NCBI GenBank assembly: GCA_965197525.1
Contig: OZ240211.1
Location: 1,600,001 to 1,664,000 of the forward strand
DNA from: Nitrosopumilus sp.
GTDB taxonomy: Archaea; Thermoproteota; Nitrososphaeria; Nitrososphaerales; Nitrosopumilaceae
Direction of reading: 5' to 3'
Length of the DNA: 64,000 nt
The position numbers and the translations under genes were made by a program. Positions 34,844 to 59,490 of the stretch are shown here, piece by piece; within the stretch, counting starts at the first letter, position 1, and the number at the start of each line of letters is the position of its first letter. The notes below the pieces were generated by a model. It worked only from the letters and a program-made list of their open reading frames with translations. It was not told where the DNA came from and did no database searches.

Positions 34844-35848
34844 CTAATGGAAACTCTCCATCTTTTTCAATTCATCTCTTGCGCGTTTTTTAATCGTATC
34901 TCGCTTTTTATGCAACATCTCTAAAACTAATTTATCAATATCATTGATTTTATCAGCCCTTGTCACTAATTTTTTCTCAACTAGGTACTCTTCTATGATA
35001 TTTGGAACTGCATTATATGATATTGTTGGAATTCCTCTTAGAGCCGATTCAGCAGTCATCGTGCCACCAGATCCTACAAAGACATCAGTCATTGCTAAGA
35101 TTTCTCTACTATCCACAGATTTTTTTAATACAATAATACGATTATCTAAATTCTTTTTTAGTTGGTCTATTTCTTTGGAATATCTTCCCAGCACCATTAC
35201 GTTGACATCTTTAATCTCTGCAAGTTTATTGATTATTTTTGCAATGTTGACATCCTTTTTTGTATACGATGCGTATGATTCGTATGTTCTAAACAAAATA
35301 TTTCTTTTACCTTTTCTGTTAATTTTTGGAACTGTTTTTTTGTTTCTTCTTTGCCTTTGTTTTATTATAAAACCTGCATCTATTGCTTTGTAACTAATAA
35401 CATTTTTTGCAGCAATTCCATACTTTGTAAACTCTTTTTTTGGAATTACCCATGGGGCCAATAATTTCTGAATTAGAGGAATGGTTAGGTTCATCACAGC
35501 CTCGCCATGAGGTGTATCGGAAAAAGCTACATGTTTAATCTGCAACCCATATGAAATTCTTGCAGCATCTGGTGAACAAGAACTAATTGTTATATCGGGC
35601 TTAAAATTCTCAATAATTGGCATCAATTTTTTCATCCTGTTAATATTTGCCTTTAGTTTTTCTGATTTTTCTATCCCTCCATGTTTTCCTATAACTAACA
35701 CATTTGATCGGCCCATTTTTATTAAATGATTTACCTCTCGATAGTTTCTTGTTGTACACAGAACCTGATGTTTTTTTCTTAATCTTTCTGCCATTGGCTC
35801 AAAAAACAATAGTTGTTTTGGCGTAAGAATATCTATCCATATTTTCAA
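34844..35848 (-). CDS. DUF354 family protein (GT-B glycosyltransferase-like)
   Basis: MKIWIDILTPKQ, SPDAAR..YGL and GSGGTMTAESAL.G.PTIS motifs. Confidence 0.88.
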   Translation of the reverse strand: MKIWIDILTPKQLLFFEPMAERLRKKHQVLCTTRNYREVNHLIKMGRSNVLVIGKHGGIEKSEKLKANINRMKKLMPIIENFKPDITISSCSPDAARISYGLQIKHVAFSDTPHGEAVMNLTIPLIQKLLAPWVIPKKEFTKYGIAAKNVISYKAIDAGFIIKQRQRRNKKTVPKINRKGKRNILFRTYESYASYTKKDVNIAKIINKLAEIKDVNVMVLGRYSKEIDQLKKNLDNRIIVLKKSVDSREILAMTDVFVGSGGTMTAESALRGIPTISYNAVPNIIEEYLVEKKLVTRADKINDIDKLVLEMLHKKRDTIKKRARDELKKMESFH

Positions 35849-47730: not shown

Positions 47731-48060
47731 ATGACGATTATTGGACACATGATGAAAAAAATCGATACTGACGTATCAAATATACAGCAAGGACTACAGC
47801 CCCAAAATCTCTCATATTGGTATGATAAAATTATCAAAGAAACAATTGATATGGTTCCTCCTTGGCTTGAGGATAAGATCAAAGTTCACCAGGATCCAAT
47901 TCTTCCAATGAAATTTAATCTTGATATCTCAAAACGTGCTGTTAGATATTTTATGATCGTCGTTGATAATAACTTGGATGCTATGCCTTACTCTACAAAG
48001 CTCTATTTTCTCAAAGTACAGGAAATAATGTCAACTGAGATGGATAAATCCCTAGTTTAG
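47731..48060 (+). CDS. Hypothetical protein
   Basis: 109-aa ORF co-oriented with coaD. Confidence 0.75.
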   Translation: MTIIGHMMKKIDTDVSNIQQGLQPQNLSYWYDKIIKETIDMVPPWLEDKIKVHQDPILPMKFNLDISKRAVRYFMIVVDNNLDAMPYSTKLYFLKVQEIMSTEMDKSLV

Positions 48061-48129
48061 TCTGGTTTACATATGGGTGTAATCAAACTCAAACTATCTA
48101 TATCCAATAAATCCTCAATTCATTGCAAC

Positions 48130-49014
48130 ATGGAATTTTACAAATCAAGAAATCTAGATAAAAAAACATCCAAGAGATACCCCAAGAGTGATAGAAGGCC
48201 TACTCGTTCCTTTAGAAATTCAAGAGATGACAAGCCTTCTAGCTATTCTCGTAATCATAACCGCACTGAACAATCCACAACCGTAGTCTGTTCTGATTGT
48301 GGTATAACGTGCAATGTTCCCTTTATTCCAAGAAATAGCAAACCTATCTACTGCAATGACTGTTTTAAACAAGATAGATTCAACGATTCCGATGACTCCC
48401 GCCACTCACGCGACAATAACAGCTCTAGGCATCGTAGTTATAACCGCACTGAACAATCCACAACCGTAGTCTGTTCTGATTGTGGTACGAAATGCAATGT
48501 TCCCTTTATTCCAAGAAATAACAAACCTATCTACTGCAATGACTGTTTTAAACAAGATAGATTCAACGATTCCGATGACTCCCGCCACTCACGCGACAAT
48601 AACAGCTCCCGCCACTCACACAAAAACGAATCAAGTAGTAGGTCCAAATCTAAGAAATTAACTGATAAATCTTTACAAAAACGGGAGCGTTTTTTTTCTA
48701 ACGGATCAGATAAATTCTATAAAACCATCCAAGAAAAATTATTTGAAATTTTGGGTGGTAAAATATGTTCTAATTGCGGCTTTAGAGATGAACGAGCTTT
48801 GAAAATTAGTTCCATATATGGCGATACACTAGATGACGACAACAACAAGCGTGGAACATTTGCATCTTCTCTAGGTAAATACATCTCTGACCCCAAGACT
48901 GCCAGAGATGAATTAAAGGTATTATGCTTGAATTGTAATCAAATCCGAGAACCTTTATCAAAACCAGATAAAGGCCATATAAAACCGAAAAAGAGTAAAT
49001 ATTTTCCTAGATGA
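48130..49014 (+). CDS. Protein with two CxxC-x17-CxxC domains and a C-terminal HNH-like Cys domain
   Basis: CSDCG..CNVPF.P....PIYCNDCF twice; CSNCG...VLCLNCN. Confidence 0.82.
   Translation: MEFYKSRNLDKKTSKRYPKSDRRPTRSFRNSRDDKPSSYSRNHNRTEQSTTVVCSDCGITCNVPFIPRNSKPIYCNDCFKQDRFNDSDDSRHSRDNNSSRHRSYNRTEQSTTVVCSDCGTKCNVPFIPRNNKPIYCNDCFKQDRFNDSDDSRHSRDNNSSRHSHKNESSSRSKSKKLTDKSLQKRERFFSNGSDKFYKTIQEKLFEILGGKICSNCGFRDERALKISSIYGDTLDDDNNKRGTFASSLGKYISDPKTARDELKVLCLNCNQIREPLSKPDKGHIKPKKSKYFPR
48257..48619. repeat. Near-identical tandem duplication, 183-bp period (coding)
   Basis: ataaccgcactgaac at 48257 and 48440; tgttttaaac at 48361 and 48544. Confidence 0.93.
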
Positions 49015-49208
49015 TATGTAAAATTTATCGAACATGTGTTAACATTTTAATGTCATTATTTTAAAACTAAATTATGAATGATGACTTTAAGGCAATTGGT
49101 GTATCTCTGATTATCATGGTTGGAGCTGTAACGTTATACGCTATGCTTGGTCTATAGATTTATTCTTGGTTCTGTGTAAACATCGGGACTTATTTTTAAC
49201 ATAAAAAA

Positions 49209-50525
49209 TTAAACCGCCAATGTTGACTTTGACATATCGACTATTTGGATTACCGTTCTGCTGGGTTCCAACATCGTTGACTCAAAAGTATCAAACTTTG
49301 CTTCACTTATGTCACCTTTACTATCCATAAACCTAGGGGACAGCTTGTTTTTTATATTTATGGGGGCTACTACATCCCTATCCATAAATAATCCACAATT
49401 ATCACACGACTTTTTACGACTGTATTGAACCTTGTCCTCTTGGAGTTTCTTTCCGCATTTTGGACAGTCCGTGCTCGTGTTTTTTGGATCTACGTTGTAT
49501 ACAGGAATACCATACCACTTGGCTTTGTACTCTACTTGTCTTTGGAATTCGTATTGTTGCCAACCGTTCATTTTACTTCTGTATTTTTTGCCTGTATTTT
49601 TGTATTTTTCATTGCCTTTGCTTTTTTTGTTTTTATTTTTTGTGTTGTTGTTTTCGTAGTTGTTTTTCTTTTTGTCTTTTGTAATATTTTTCCATTTTTT
49701 ACCTTTTGTGTTTTCTTTTGTATATCTTTTTTTTATTCCTCTTAGATCCTCTAATACTATAATTGTTTTATTTTTAACCGCTTCTTTTACAATATGATTT
49801 GATATTCTATGTGTTGATTGATTTGTTCTATTATACATTCTTTTATTTTTTTCTTCCCAAAAGTCACCTTTTACTCTACGATCATTTCTTCTAAATCCAG
49901 ATCTGGCTTGTATTGTATTTTTTTTAATTGATAATATTTTTTTAGTCTTGTAAAATACAACTTTTTTCTCATTTCCACAAGTTACATTTCTAAGGTTTCT
50001 GTCTATTCCTACTATATCAATACATTCTATTTCTTCTACTTGTTTTGATATACAAAAACTAATTGATTTATTATTCATTGAAAAAGATTGTACTTTTATA
50101 GTATCATTAGATAATATTTTTTGTGTATATTCTGCTAATAACACATTAATTGGATTTCTATTCTTATATGGAACTGTCATTAAACAACCATTATGTTTTA
50201 TGCCATAACAGTTTGTAATGAATGGTTTTTTTACAAATGGGTCTTTAACCTTAACACCTCTTTTTATTGATTGTTTTCTATTTGATAGTATACCTGCCGC
50301 CCTTGATATTGCATTTATTTTATATGAACCTAAAATATCATAGTGACGTAATTCATGATAACATAAATAAGATAATCGTTTCATATTATGTGTGTTTTCT
50401 TTTAGTCCTACTTTAATACAATAATTGACCATTTTTGTAAATATGTTCATTATTTCTTTCAAGTCTTCATTTGGTGTGTATTCTTGTTTAATTGATTTTA
50501 ATGCTTTATATTTTTTATTTTTCAT
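49209..50525 (-). CDS. tnpB: TnpB RNA-guided endonuclease, apparently intact
   Basis: RuvC-I GIDRN, RuvC-II LEDL, TSTDCPKCG and CDNCG..MDRD..A.INI motifs. Confidence 0.92.
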   Translation of the reverse strand: MKNKKYKALKSIKQEYTPNEDLKEIMNIFTKMVNYCIKVGLKENTHNMKRLSYLCYHELRHYDILGSYKINAISRAAGILSNRKQSIKRGVKVKDPFVKKPFITNCYGIKHNGCLMTVPYKNRNPINVLLAEYTQKILSNDTIKVQSFSMNNKSISFCISKQVEEIECIDIVGIDRNLRNVTCGNEKKVVFYKTKKILSIKKNTIQARSGFRRNDRRVKGDFWEEKNKRMYNRTNQSTHRISNHIVKEAVKNKTIIVLEDLRGIKKRYTKENTKGKKWKNITKDKKKNNYENNNTKNKNKKSKGNEKYKNTGKKYRSKMNGWQQYEFQRQVEYKAKWYGIPVYNVDPKNTSTDCPKCGKKLQEDKVQYSRKKSCDNCGLFMDRDVVAPINIKNKLSPRFMDSKGDISEAKFDTFESTMLEPSRTVIQIVDMSKSTLAV

Positions 50526-50550
50526 TTTATTATATTACTAAGATATTTTT

Positions 50551-50568
50551 TATTTAAACTCTTTTTTA
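50551..50568 (-). promoter_or_regulatory. BRE-TATA promoter of tnpB inside the element
   Basis: Minus strand aaaaaagag-tttaaata; the TATA box begins about 33 nt upstream of the ATG, consistent with a leaderless transcript. Confidence 0.55.
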
Positions 50569-50609
50569 GTAAATTATATCTGATAAAGTCCCGAAGATTA
50601 CACAGAACC

Positions 50610-50891
50610 TTATTCTTTAACCATTTCTACAACATTACCAATAATTGTAGTTGAAGTTAGTTTATGCTCTTTATCAGTTACTGATTGAATAAAATCAGCA
50701 AATATCTCTACTTCTTGTTCATTTTTCAGTAAAATACTATGAGCTGATTTATCTTTTAAAGAAATAATTAGTTCATTTTTTACTACGTTTAAAATTCCTA
50801 CAACATACGTCTCTTTTCCATCTTTAATGAATGTCAAACTTGCCAATTTTTGAGCTTCATATTTATCATCACATGTGATGCTAACCTTCAT
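50610..50891 (-). CDS. Hypothetical protein; its stop codon lies in the TSD
   Basis: 93-aa ORF directly downstream of trpS. Confidence 0.78.
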   Translation of the reverse strand: MKVSITCDDKYEAQKLASLTFIKDGKETYVVGILNVVKNELIISLKDKSAHSILLKNEQEVEIFADFIQSVTDKEHKLTSTTIIGNVVEMVKE

Positions 50892-50893
50892 TT

Positions 50894-52003
50894 TTATTTA
50901 TTCTCCAAAAGAAACTGTTCTATCTGTTCTTTTGCCTTTTCTCTTCTCTCTTGATGCACTGCAAGAAATTTGTTGATCTTTTCAATTAGGATGGCTTTTA
51001 TCTCACCTGAGAGTAATTTTCCTGACTTGTAGTCGTCATAAATTGTTCTCAATTTATTGTCATCTGGTTCGAAGAATATTCTTAGATACTGATAAGATAC
51101 ATCTATGTCTGGATTCCCACCAAGTTTTCTATGCTGTGTAATATCCTGCTGCCCTCCTGAGAATGCATTATTGATCTTCCTTTTTACCATATTAGGTGTA
51201 TCAGTTGTGTAAATTGTACCTTTTTGATCAGACGCTGACATCTTTCCTCCGGGTCTCTCCAATCCTGGGATCATTATATTGTGAATTAGTGCAGGTTTTT
51301 GCCTTCCAATCTTCGGTGCAATATCTCTTGTTAATCTAAAATGTGGATCTTGATCAACTCCCAATGGAATTAGAACTGGGTTATTCTCAATAAAGCATGG
51401 AGCAGACTGCAGTGATGTATAAAAGATCATTCCTAGATTCGTCTCATTCGTAAACCCAAACGTTGCTTTTGTATTTGAAAAGTTAATCTTCTTTGCCACT
51501 TGAGCTGCAATTGGATAAAGTGTTTGTATATTTTTTGTATCGATAATAATTTTTGTTTTTTCAGGTTTGAAACCTAGTGCAATAAAATCCAACGCATTCT
51601 CATATGCAAATTGTCTTGTATCTTCCAAAGTAAGATCAGGTTTTGAATAAAACTTTTCATCATCTGTTAATTGAAAATACATATTGACATCAAATTTTTC
51701 TTGTAGCCATCTTGCAAATACCCATGGTACTAGATGGCCAATATGTGTATGTCCTGAAGGCCCTCTTCCTGTATATAAAAAGAATTTACTACCTTTCTCG
51801 TATTCATCAATGATTCTATTCAACTCTCTGTGAGAAAAAAATACGCCTCTTTTGAGCATAAAATGGCCTTCTCCTGTAATTTTATTGATTCTTTTTAGTA
51901 GATCTGGCGATATTTTTTCAGTACCAAACCTTTTGATTAGTTTATCATAGTCAATATCGCCCTCAACGTGCCAAGGCGTAACAATAAAATCATCTGACGG
52001 CAT
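50894..52003 (-). CDS. trpS: Tryptophan--tRNA ligase
   Basis: YTGRGPS..THIGH, DQDPHFR and KMSAS motifs. Confidence 0.98.
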   Translation of the reverse strand: MPSDDFIVTPWHVEGDIDYDKLIKRFGTEKISPDLLKRINKITGEGHFMLKRGVFFSHRELNRIIDEYEKGSKFFLYTGRGPSGHTHIGHLVPWVFARWLQEKFDVNMYFQLTDDEKFYSKPDLTLEDTRQFAYENALDFIALGFKPEKTKIIIDTKNIQTLYPIAAQVAKKINFSNTKATFGFTNETNLGMIFYTSLQSAPCFIENNPVLIPLGVDQDPHFRLTRDIAPKIGRQKPALIHNIMIPGLERPGGKMSASDQKGTIYTTDTPNMVKRKINNAFSGGQQDITQHRKLGGNPDIDVSYQYLRIFFEPDDNKLRTIYDDYKSGKLLSGEIKAILIEKINKFLAVHQERREKAKEQIEQFLLENK

Positions 52004-59459: not shown

Positions 59460-59490
59460 GGTTCTGTGTCAAGTTAGCGGGTGTTGGAAG
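59460..59490. mobile_element. Orphan GGTTCTGT-type element end
   Basis: ggttctgtgtcaagttagcgggtgttggaag matches the left half of the 58-bp elements. Confidence 0.6.

Follow-up and report, generated by a model that had tools for sequence, protein, structure and literature searches.

A TnpB nuclease as probable cargo of a non-autonomous transposon with IS6-like ends in an archaeal genome

In a Nitrosopumilus-type archaeon, a tnpB gene in the 64-kb window (by which we mean the whole stretch of DNA that was analysed, 64,000 nucleotides) lies between terminal inverted repeats of the kind found on IS6 elements, which are themselves flanked by a perfect 8-bp duplication. Our analysis indicates that this unit is probably a non-autonomous transposon with IS6-like ends that carries TnpB and an omega RNA as cargo, that is moved in trans, and in which, less certainly, the guide and the TAM would be coupled to the insertion site. 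Cas12 descends from TnpB, which is also a compact nuclease for genome editing and whose known natural role is to restore IS200/IS605 and IS607 elements once these have been excised without a scar.

The tnpB element and its insertion site

The element occupies positions 49168-50609 (~1.4 kb; 1442 bases) and its features are listed in Table 1. An earlier note on this DNA had described 24-bp inverted repeats around a single intact tnpB, a description borne out by the sequence, by a separate repeat search of the window that returned the same two arms, and by shuffling. Specifically, the repeats are identical at 22 of 24 positions (positions 13 and 15 differ), a degenerate search allowing up to three mismatches found the repeat at just these two sites in the 64-kb window, and the same search found 0 matches in 100 dinucleotide-preserving shuffles. 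The perfect 8-bp duplication described in the same note is likewise present, its right-hand copy beginning with TTA, which is the TAA stop codon of a neighbouring 93-aa gene (50610-50891, minus strand). The first 8 bases of the element's ends are those of the IS6 family end consensus, GGTTCTGTTGCAAA (PMC6807381). Because tnpB is the sole open reading frame of at least 110 aa between the repeats, with no transposase gene inside the element, the element can be at most a non-autonomous derivative of the IS6 type. A TATA-like sequence upstream of tnpB is a possible internal promoter.

Table 1. Positions of the tnpB element, its predicted RNA and its flanking features in the window
Feature	Position	Strand	Details
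Predicted guide	49148..49167	-	Inferred: duplication plus 12 nt of flank, read through the 3' end
Target-site duplication, tnpB-3' side	49160..49167	.	TTATTCTT; predicted first 8 nt of the guide
Terminal inverted repeat, tnpB-3' end	49168..49191	+	GGTTCTGTGTAAACATCGGGACTT, starts GGTTCTGTGTAAACATCGGG
Predicted omega-RNA scaffold	49168..49344	-	Overlaps the 3' end of tnpB; covariation and single-sequence fold
Unpaired omega-RNA tail	49168-49175		ACAGAACC
Omega-RNA terminal stem	49217-49227		Pairs with inner-repeat bases 49176-49186
Omega-RNA helix 2	49308-49314		Pairs with 49230-49236
Omega-RNA helix 1	49320-49344
tnpB, 438 aa	49209..50525	-	RuvC D175/E259/D384 and zinc ribbon intact
Lys/Asn-rich low-complexity insertion, ~37 aa	49590..49709	-	Between RuvC-II and the zinc ribbon
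TATA-like sequence	50551..50558	-	TTTAAATA; ~29 nt upstream of the tnpB ATG
Terminal inverted repeat, tnpB-5' end	50586..50609	-	GGTTCTGTGTAATCTTCGGGACTT, starts GGTTCTGTGTAATCTTCGGG
Target-site duplication, tnpB-5' side	50610..50617	.	TTATTCTT; includes the stop codon of the 93-aa gene
TAM-like TTA	50618..50620	-	Directly 5' of the duplication in the tnpB sense

The unoccupied form of the site is found in relatives. Two contigs from two other studies (6246 and 5533 nt) join position 49159 directly to position 50610, so that both skip 1450 bases, that is 1442 + 8, with the 8 letters fitting on either side, and a single TTATTCTT with abutting flanks is present in at least five species of the same genus. 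This precise empty site confirms the proposal in the earlier note that the unit inserted whole: the element entered TTATTCTT as one unit between two convergent genes, duplicating 8 bases, and it did so after the lineage had split from relatives that are ~95% identical.

The encoded protein matches Pfam PF07282 (Cas12f1-like TNB domain; 9e-21, 74.2 bits, cut-off 26.3) as well as the NCBIfam model guided_TnpB ('RNA-guided endonuclease TnpB family'; 9e-25, 87.8 bits, which is below the cut-off of 100). An alignment with relatives shows no variation at D175 (in GIDRN), E259 (LED), and D384 (DRD) or at the two CxxC pairs (354/357 and 374/377), and the three acidic residues align with the RuvC residues of ISDra2 TnpB. 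The ~37-aa insertion is present in the window TnpB and in none of the aligned relatives; as this copy is a singleton and carries the low-complexity insertion, its own activity is uncertain. A domesticated or regulatory role for this TnpB was weighed and set aside, since its catalytic residues are intact and it belongs to a multicopy family that has fresh duplications. In public records, close homologues go under the name 'IS200/IS605 family accessory protein TnpB'.

A multicopy tnpB family and a candidate partner transposase

The genome contains 35 full-length copies of tnpB and ~14 fragments, and many of the 35 are 97-99.5% identical to one another. The further end-bounded copies that the earlier note proposed to look for are abundant: GGTTCTGT-type ends (repeats matching at 20 or more of the 24 positions) surround 33 of the 35 full-length copies, and 21 copies have perfect 8-bp duplications that differ from one another. 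Sister subfamilies have ends that read GGTTCTGTTGCATTC, and there are also miniature copies that lack tnpB and keep the RNA region. The same genome also has miniature elements of the IS6-like type, as well as elements that carry other small cargo. Among the 23 elements in this genome whose flanks do not match, we looked for swapped duplications, which would mark intramolecular copy-in transposition or recombination, and obtained no more than AT-rich near-coincidences. In other genomes, the same kind of ends was found around TnpB relatives at 12 of 27 loci in one survey and at 20 of 32 loci in another. The two closest outside homologues have them as well.

A search of the genome with the PF13610 profile gave seven matches over the cut-off, and intact IS6-like elements with a SWIM-DDE transposase are present. 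The autonomous IS6-like partner that the earlier note had called for is represented by an element at G000:746475-748444, which has an intact 378-aa DDE transposase gene (PF13610; SWIM-zinc-ribbon-DDE), ends that match at 24 of 24 positions, and an 8-bp duplication of its own, CTATTGTG; over the first 18 bases its ends agree exactly with the tnpB-5' end of the window element. For the largest tnpB subfamily, the ends match those of resident transposase elements only over the first 8-9 bases, and no element carrying both tnpB and a transposase gene was found in this genome. The partner transposase scores 42-61 bits against PF13610 (cut-off 27), has ~130 extra N-terminal residues with zinc fingers, and finds its best NCBIfam match in the IS6 family transposase model (2e-29; 102.8 bits, below the cut-off of 125). 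The assignment to IS6 made in the earlier note stands as far as the GGTTCTGT ends and the 8-bp duplication are concerned, and is weakened to 'IS6-like' by the sub-threshold score of the partner. In keeping with this wording, Harmer and Hall argue for keeping archaeal members out of IS6/IS26, and no transposition experiments are reported for archaeal IS6-like members (PMC6807381).

The transposases that usually accompany tnpB are missing. No match to Y1 TnpA (PF01797) was obtained in this single-contig genome, which is rated 98.99% complete, with a search that gave matches in control genomes, and none was obtained in the same genome to the serine-recombinase TnpA (PF00239). The size of the family (more than 30 copies), the matching ends on transposase elements, and the lack of a Y1 or serine TnpA argue that the tnpB elements are non-autonomous and moved in trans, and we infer that the SWIM-DDE transposase is what moves them. 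The copies, the partner, and the empty site thus support the earlier proposal of a tnpB transposon mobilised by a DDE transposase.

These observations bear on two other accounts of the element. That it is a canonical IS1341-type (IS200/IS605) element moved by Y1 TnpA, with the repeat and the duplication being coincidental, would fit the public names of close homologues; we regard it as having next to no chance of being correct, however, and rule it out, because the repeat does not arise in the shuffles, the genome lacks a Y1 transposase, the family displays 21 distinct perfect duplications, and IS200/IS605 elements lack both terminal inverted repeats and duplications (PMC13565253). It is very improbable, too, that the element reflects a one-off nesting, in which an IS200/IS605-type tnpB element landed in an IS6-type miniature element without the two forming a transposing unit. 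Such an event is a plausible origin for the family, and the genome does hold IS6-like miniature and other small-cargo elements. As a description of the present element, however, it is contradicted by the recurrence of the same architecture in 33 copies at different sites with their own duplications and again in other genera, by relatives that lack precisely the whole unit and one copy of the duplication, and by the covariation of the RNA terminal stem with the repeat described below.

A predicted omega RNA and a one-sided motif at landing sites

The predicted omega-RNA scaffold includes two helices that lie within the coding sequence and show compensatory double changes in 11 of 14 pairs across genera. 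The folding energy of the window scaffold is on its own unremarkable (z = -1.56; 15 of 200 shuffles fold as well), so that it is the covariation that supports the scaffold call, and a search of positions 49000-50800 against Rfam at a permissive E-value matched no family. In 33 of 35 distinct termini, the stretch downstream of the conserved scaffold pairs with the inner part of the terminal repeat. This pairing is kept though the sequence of the repeat differs between subfamilies, and the mismatches in the stem are G-T in 8 cases versus A-C in 1. Covariation of the terminal stem with the repeat points to long co-evolution and not to accident, and the guide-RNA scaffold is predicted to have absorbed the binding site of the transposase. 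The linker between the conserved scaffold and the repeat varies from 12 to 110 nt, which is unusual if a guide must sit near its scaffold. The sequence of the predicted guide occurs once in the genome.

The three bases that precede the duplication, on the tnpB-5' side only, are T in 26, T in 30, and R in 31 of 33 elements. The full TTR is present in 23 of 33, compared to 4.6% expected (P about 1e-23), and is present at the mirror position in 4 of 33. TTR is also found beside the miniature copies that lack tnpB and keep the RNA region, and in other genomes it occurs at 13 of 20 sites (T-R at 18 of 20); the architecture of TnpB within IS6-like ends and the TTR motif both recur in other genera. 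As a control, we took four elements that carry a transposase only and have duplications, and none of their 8 sides showed TTR; at 26 of 30 transposase loci of relatives there was no inverted repeat with duplication within 1.3 kb of the gene. The flanks are AT-rich, with an additional enrichment of A 7-8 bases before the duplication. In its geometry, TTR looks like a TAM, that is, like the recognition motif of TnpB itself.

In the model we favour, the omega RNA would, somewhat less certainly, be transcribed together with tnpB, its last stem would be built from the inner bases of the 3' repeat, and the RNA would continue through the terminal ACAGAACC into the flank. Because such an RNA reads through ACAGAACC, its guide would consist of the duplication and the downstream flank, and the TAM would be supplied by the TTR found ahead of the duplication at the other end. 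TTR, duplication, and flank come together only at an unoccupied site, so that TnpB would be expected to cleave alleles without the element and to spare its own insertion. Cutting of empty alleles could provide a homing or retention function to a transposon that probably does not excise.

We consider it unlikely that TnpB and its RNA are instead mere passengers, in which case TTR would stem from the DDE transposition complex favouring certain targets or from selection for a promoter element in the flank, and the guide would be something other than duplication plus flank. In favour of passengers, the small transposase-only control (n = 4) leaves room for a target bias of the transposition complex itself that affects one side only, the AT-rich flanks and the A enrichment 7-8 bases before the duplication may be parts of a broader target signal or of one resembling a promoter, and the linker between scaffold and end is variable. 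Yet TTR is found on the side, on the strand, and in the exact adjacency that a 5' TAM needs for a guide that is read outward through the tnpB-3' end, and it is missing at the mirror position despite the near-identical ends. Its recurrence in other genera and beside tnpB-less miniature copies with the RNA region also speaks against passengers, as does the TATA-like box that the element itself has upstream of tnpB.

As to what the guide and TAM coupling might do, we tentatively suggest that TnpB serves as a homing or retention (gene-drive) nuclease for a non-excising, copy-in DDE transposon or, alternatively, that its binding to the TAM steers the site and orientation of integration. With homing, the 8-bp duplication made by the transposase would become the first 8 nt of the guide, and just those alleles that had never been occupied would be cut and converted. 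In the bolder variant, it would be TAM binding by TnpB that guides the DDE transposase to a site and sets the orientation of the insert.

Relation to known systems and meaning for TnpB biology

TnpBs associated with DDE transposases and bounded by inverted terminal repeats were described by Altae-Tran et al. in 2023 in PNAS (PMC10691335), who also reported solo TnpBs that have these same ends and were taken to be mobilised in trans, and the novelty that the earlier note attached to TnpB on a DDE transposon was therefore overstated. The window element resembles the DDE-1 to DDE-6 branches of that study in that TnpB lies between the symmetrical inverted repeats of a DDE transposon, with its 3' end within 250 bp of the transposon end (the tnpB stop codon here is 41 bp from it), and resembles the solo TnpBs in that copies without a transposase have ends like those of transposase-bearing elements. 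It differs in that its partner is an archaeal SWIM/zinc-ribbon-DDE protein (PF13610), in the 8-bp duplication, and in that the genome holds no two-gene element; in addition, the text of that paper reports neither a one-sided TTR beside the duplication nor an RNA whose terminal stem is formed by the repeat. What the literature examined does not name is an IS6-like partner for TnpB, the DDE-TnpB pairing itself being already published. A 2026 review lists ISL2, IS630, and IS1031 as the partner families of the DDE-associated TnpBs of that study, with IS6 absent from the list (PMC13565253), a full-text literature search for TnpB with IS6 and DDE as whole words returned no paper on the pairing, and tnpB cargo is mentioned in neither of two IS6 reviews (PMC7986276, PMC6807381).

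With the IS6/IS26 family (IS26, IS257/IS431, IS1216), the element shares GGTTCTGT ends, 8-bp duplications, a PF13610 partner, and the existence of miniature derivatives, which are known for IS6 elements (PMC7986276), but it lacks a transposase of its own. The single tnpB, the scaffold over its 3' end pointing outward, and the T-rich motif beside the opposite end are shared with IS1341-type elements (IS200/IS605; ISDra2-type OMEGA modules), which, unlike the window element, have subterminal hairpins and a Y1 TnpA and are without inverted repeats or duplication. Fanzor proteins provide a further parallel, being RNA-guided TnpB-type nucleases that ride DDE transposons whose ends are inverted and flanked by duplications, the 5' copy falling within or next to the TAM (PMC13565253); those are eukaryotic or from giant viruses and have a rearranged RuvC-II glutamate, whereas here a prokaryotic TnpB with a DRD motif is encoded by an archaeon.

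A large and recently active TnpB family on IS6-like ends resides in a complete archaeal genome, and the label of IS200/IS605 accessory protein misstates how these tnpB genes move. IS200/IS605-type elements excise scarlessly, a loss that homing by TnpB repairs, and this restoring role has been taken to explain the rarity of TnpB on DDE transposons (PMC13565253). The family described here raises the question of what use an RNA-guided nuclease is to a transposon that probably copies itself without excision. If true, homing or steering by TnpB would contradict the view that OMEGA modules benefit only transposons that excise scarlessly.

An insertion and its empty site

The earlier note had described an intact-looking tnpB as the lone gene between 24-bp inverted repeats, and our ORF, profile, alignment and repeat searches bear this out. 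The two arms are identical at 22/24 positions and each lies directly inside one copy of the target duplication. A degenerate search for the arm (≤3 mismatches) returned 2 sites in the 64 kb, the two arms themselves, and 0 matches in 100 dinucleotide-preserving shuffles, and independent repeat detection in the window returned the same pair. Two lone 11/12 matches to GGTTCTGTGTAA, at 35754-35765 (-) and 59460-59471 (+), are without a partner arm nearby and are probably chance matches or solo remnants. The encoded protein matches PF07282 (E = 9e-21), the NCBIfam TnpB family (E = 9e-25) and solved TnpB and Cas12f structures, and the alignment with relatives shows no variation at D175, E259, D384 or two CxxC pairs. 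Between RuvC-II and the zinc ribbon it carries a Lys/Asn-rich insertion of ~37 aa (roughly 49590-49709) that was found in no relative aligned with it. The flanking duplication is perfect, as had also been claimed, and its right-hand copy holds the stop codon of the neighbouring 93-aa gene (50610-50891).

We aligned assembled contigs from public runs to window positions 48000-52000. Two contigs (6246 nt and 5533 nt) from two other studies, which share about 95-96% identity with the window, run straight from 49159 into 50610, with 1450 bases (1442 + 8) absent and 8 letters at the junction assignable to either side. Both flanks also adjoin in same-genus species representatives, where the HSPs overlap by 8 bases, and the order in aligned relatives is the stop of a small upstream ORF, two bases, one TTATTCTT and then the 93-aa gene. 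Because relatives join the flanks on one TTATTCTT, the single copy is ancestral and the element with the second copy is derived; the precise gap shows, as the earlier note had claimed, that the element inserted as a whole unit. To the left, the product of window 48073-49014 (+), 313 aa long, has two repeats of the treble-clef zinc-finger type (PF23477) and an internal tandem duplication. A related contig (run X6, a public run whose assembly overlaps this region) skips 186 bases of this gene, 48428-48615, and its version therefore has one repeat unit fewer.

Features of the tnpB element and of its candidate partner (window positions unless prefixed G000, the single-contig genome holding the window)
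Feature	Position	Strand	Remarks
Target duplication TTATTCTT	49160-49167 and 50610-50617		read in sequence 48900-50900
Inverted-repeat arm, 24 bases, starts GGTTCTGTG	49168-49191	+	tnpB-3' end
Inverted-repeat arm, 24 bases, starts GGTTCTGTG	50586-50609	-	tnpB-5' end
tnpB ORF, 438 aa	49209-50525	-	sole sizeable ORF between arms
Predicted helix 1	49320-49344		RNAalifold
Predicted long-range helix 2	49308-49314 with 49230-49236		RNAalifold
Predicted terminal stem	49217-49227 with 49176-49186		window
TAM-like TTA	50618-50620	-	
Predicted guide	49167 down to about 49148		unique in genome
Transposase element, 1970 bp	G000:746475-748444		24/24 inverted repeats, duplication CTATTGTG, intact 378-aa ORF

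Shared ends and a candidate transposase

A search for further end-bounded copies with new duplications, suggested by the earlier note, was positive. By tblastn with the window TnpB, the genome (one contig, 2.21 Mb) contains 35 full-length copies along with about 14 fragments. Of the 35, 33 lie between GGTTCTGT-type inverted repeats that agree at ≥20/24 positions, and 21 copies have perfect 8-bp duplications, every one different, several others being off by one base. Most subfamilies are young, their copies sharing 97-99.5% identity with one another. The window copy is a singleton (best other genome copy 77% over part of its length; about 61% identity to the others at the protein level). Miniature derivatives of 139-497 bp share the ends of the tnpB elements, and many retain just the tnpB 3' region. 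Those of 378-497 bp (for example G000:C1:870887-871264, 803351-803738 and 143852-144348) retain both ends together with the tnpB 3' (guide-RNA) region, the nuclease gene being lost, and several have a perfect 8-bp duplication with TTR (R = A/G), a TAM-like triplet, on the expected side. Two other elements with IS6-like ends, L121:1-851 (G000:883991-884841; ends 30/30, duplication TATTACTG, ORFs of 55 and 96 aa) and L123:1-835 (G000:572469-573303; a 78-aa ORF), contain neither transposase nor tnpB; other small cargo thus seems to travel on these ends as well.

Neither a Y1 (HUH) transposase nor a serine recombinase was found in the genome by searches that were positive in control genomes, and the IS6-type DDE domain PF13610 gave seven above-cut-off matches. 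A search for an autonomous partner led to the 1970-bp transposase element, which holds one of these seven matches and whose ends start GGTTCTGTGTAATCTTCG, with 18 bases identical to the tnpB-5' end of the window element. Its transposase combines a SWIM-like CxCxnCxH motif at the N terminus with a zinc ribbon, a helix-turn-helix region and a DDE domain. Among NCBIfam models 'IS6 family transposase' ranks first (2e-29 over the full profile length; 102.8 bits against a cut-off of 125). Relatives of this enzyme are present in 69/181 genomes of the family. An inverted repeat with an 8-bp duplication within 1.3 kb of the SWIM-DDE gene was undetected in 26 of 30 loci from relatives (L090-L118), and many of these genes may lie in larger or decayed elements or be domesticated. 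A 4.1-kb element, L122:1-4126 (G000:1956395-1960520), has the ends of the intact transposase element, the duplication TTTAATAG, a broken transposase (a 233-aa C-terminal ORF and an N-terminal piece) and several unrelated ORFs.

Because the ends are shared, the duplication is 8 bp and no alternative transposase was found, we infer from these sequences that the SWIM-DDE enzyme class would move the tnpB elements in trans; the window element is very probably an IS6-like, TnpB-carrying element that is non-autonomous and mobilised in this way. The mechanism proposed in the earlier note is thus supported, whereas its novelty was overstated, DDE-type TnpBs having already been published. The IS6 style it named holds for the end type and the 8-bp duplication but not as a family name: members of the IS6 family encode a transposase, and we write 'IS6-like' because the window element encodes none, its partner falls under the NCBIfam IS6 cut-off and it is disputed whether archaeal members belong in IS6/IS26 (PMC6807381).

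Relatives of the window TnpB were found in 41/301 sampled genomes of the class, with GGTTCTGT-type ends at 12 of 27 loci. A scan of species-representative genomes found such ends at 20/32 TnpB loci (ten with perfect 8-bp duplications), including loci from Nitrosotalea, Nitrosotenuis, one Asgard and one Methanomethylicaceae assembly. Same-type ends also bound the two closest homologues outside the genome (identity 65% as listed by the search and 71% across aligned columns), one of which (L119:419-1916) is inserted between the urease gamma/beta genes ureA and ureB with flanks that agree only partly (CGTAGTAT vs CGTAATCC). In public annotation the homologues go under the names 'transposase' or 'IS200/IS605 accessory protein TnpB'. 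In another Nitrosopumilus genome (OZ245003.1), two copies with identical ends (L126:1426-2716 and L127:1426-2716) have exchanged flanks: one lies between TAGAAACT and TTATGTTA, its counterpart between TTATGTTA and TAGAAACT. Such a reciprocal swap is the mark of a recombination or inversion event involving a pair of copies.

TnpB borne on inverted ends of the DDE type is known as a kind, since published work covers six branches of DDE-transposase-associated TnpBs, all with inverted terminal repeats, and solo TnpBs whose ends are nearly identical and for which mobilisation in trans is proposed (Altae-Tran et al. 2023, PMC10691335), and a 2026 review names ISL2, IS630 and IS1031 as DDE partner families and argues that OMEGA modules should mainly benefit transposons that excise (PMC13565253). 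The elements described here likewise have inverted ends and solo copies, but the partners named in the review do not include IS6-like ones. Reviews of IS6 (PMC7986276, PMC6807381) describe miniature elements and one passenger gene and leave tnpB unmentioned, and a full-text literature search found nothing on a pairing of TnpB with IS6-like elements. In the papers compared here we found no description of an IS6-like partner, of an 8-bp duplication as presumed guide start, of an RNA stem formed from the inverted repeat or of a TTR mark beside the duplication.

Predicted guide RNA and landing motif

Nucleotide conservation in the final ~150 nt of tnpB is far above that in the rest of the gene. 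RNAalifold, applied to 21 termini from several genera aligned with MAFFT, predicts two helices in which 11/14 pairs have changed on both sides with pairing kept; a second analysis agrees. The bases after a conserved AAGTY pair with the inner 3' inverted repeat (positions 9-24) in 33/35 distinct termini, even as the repeat sequence varies between subfamilies, and the terminal 6-9 bases (ACAGAACC) are left unpaired. Mismatches in this repeat stem comprise 8 G-T and 1 A-C, a bias that may indicate that the tnpB sense strand pairs as RNA. The two repeat differences of the window element (positions 13 and 15) fall in the terminal stem, and its repeat may be 22/24 rather than perfect because the 3'-side variants pair with the internal arm. 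Folded alone, the window sequence gives the same three elements with unexceptional energy (z = -1.56), and an Rfam search of the element region gave no matching family.

We oriented 33 elements by tnpB and counted the bases flanking the duplication on both sides. On the tnpB-5' side, the three bases directly before the duplication are T (26/33), T (30/33) and A/G (31/33), and 23/33 elements have the full TTR where 4.6% would be expected (P about 1e-23); on the 3' side, 4/33 have it at the mirror position. An A-rich pair lies 7-8 bases ahead of the duplication. In other genomes the counts are 13/20 for TTR and 18/20 for T-R, and most miniatures that retain the RNA region also carry TTR. Beside transposase-only elements with clean duplications TTR occurs on 0/8 sides, a small control of four elements that points in the same direction.

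These patterns suggest that the omega RNA, the predicted guide RNA of TnpB, would be read out through the 3' end of the element, with the duplication and flank serving as guide. The empty site would then present TTR, duplication and flank on the non-target strand, whereas at the occupied site ...GAACC, from the element itself, would stand before the guide-matching sequence. The motif geometry fits the TnpB requirement; the linker between scaffold and repeat, variable at 12-110 nt, counts against this guide. On balance we lean modestly towards the duplication and flank as guide with TTR as TAM and, combining this with the much firmer case for a trans-moved element, consider the whole explanation reasonably likely. 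With TTR absent before the guide match at the occupied site, the nuclease would recognise only unoccupied alleles.
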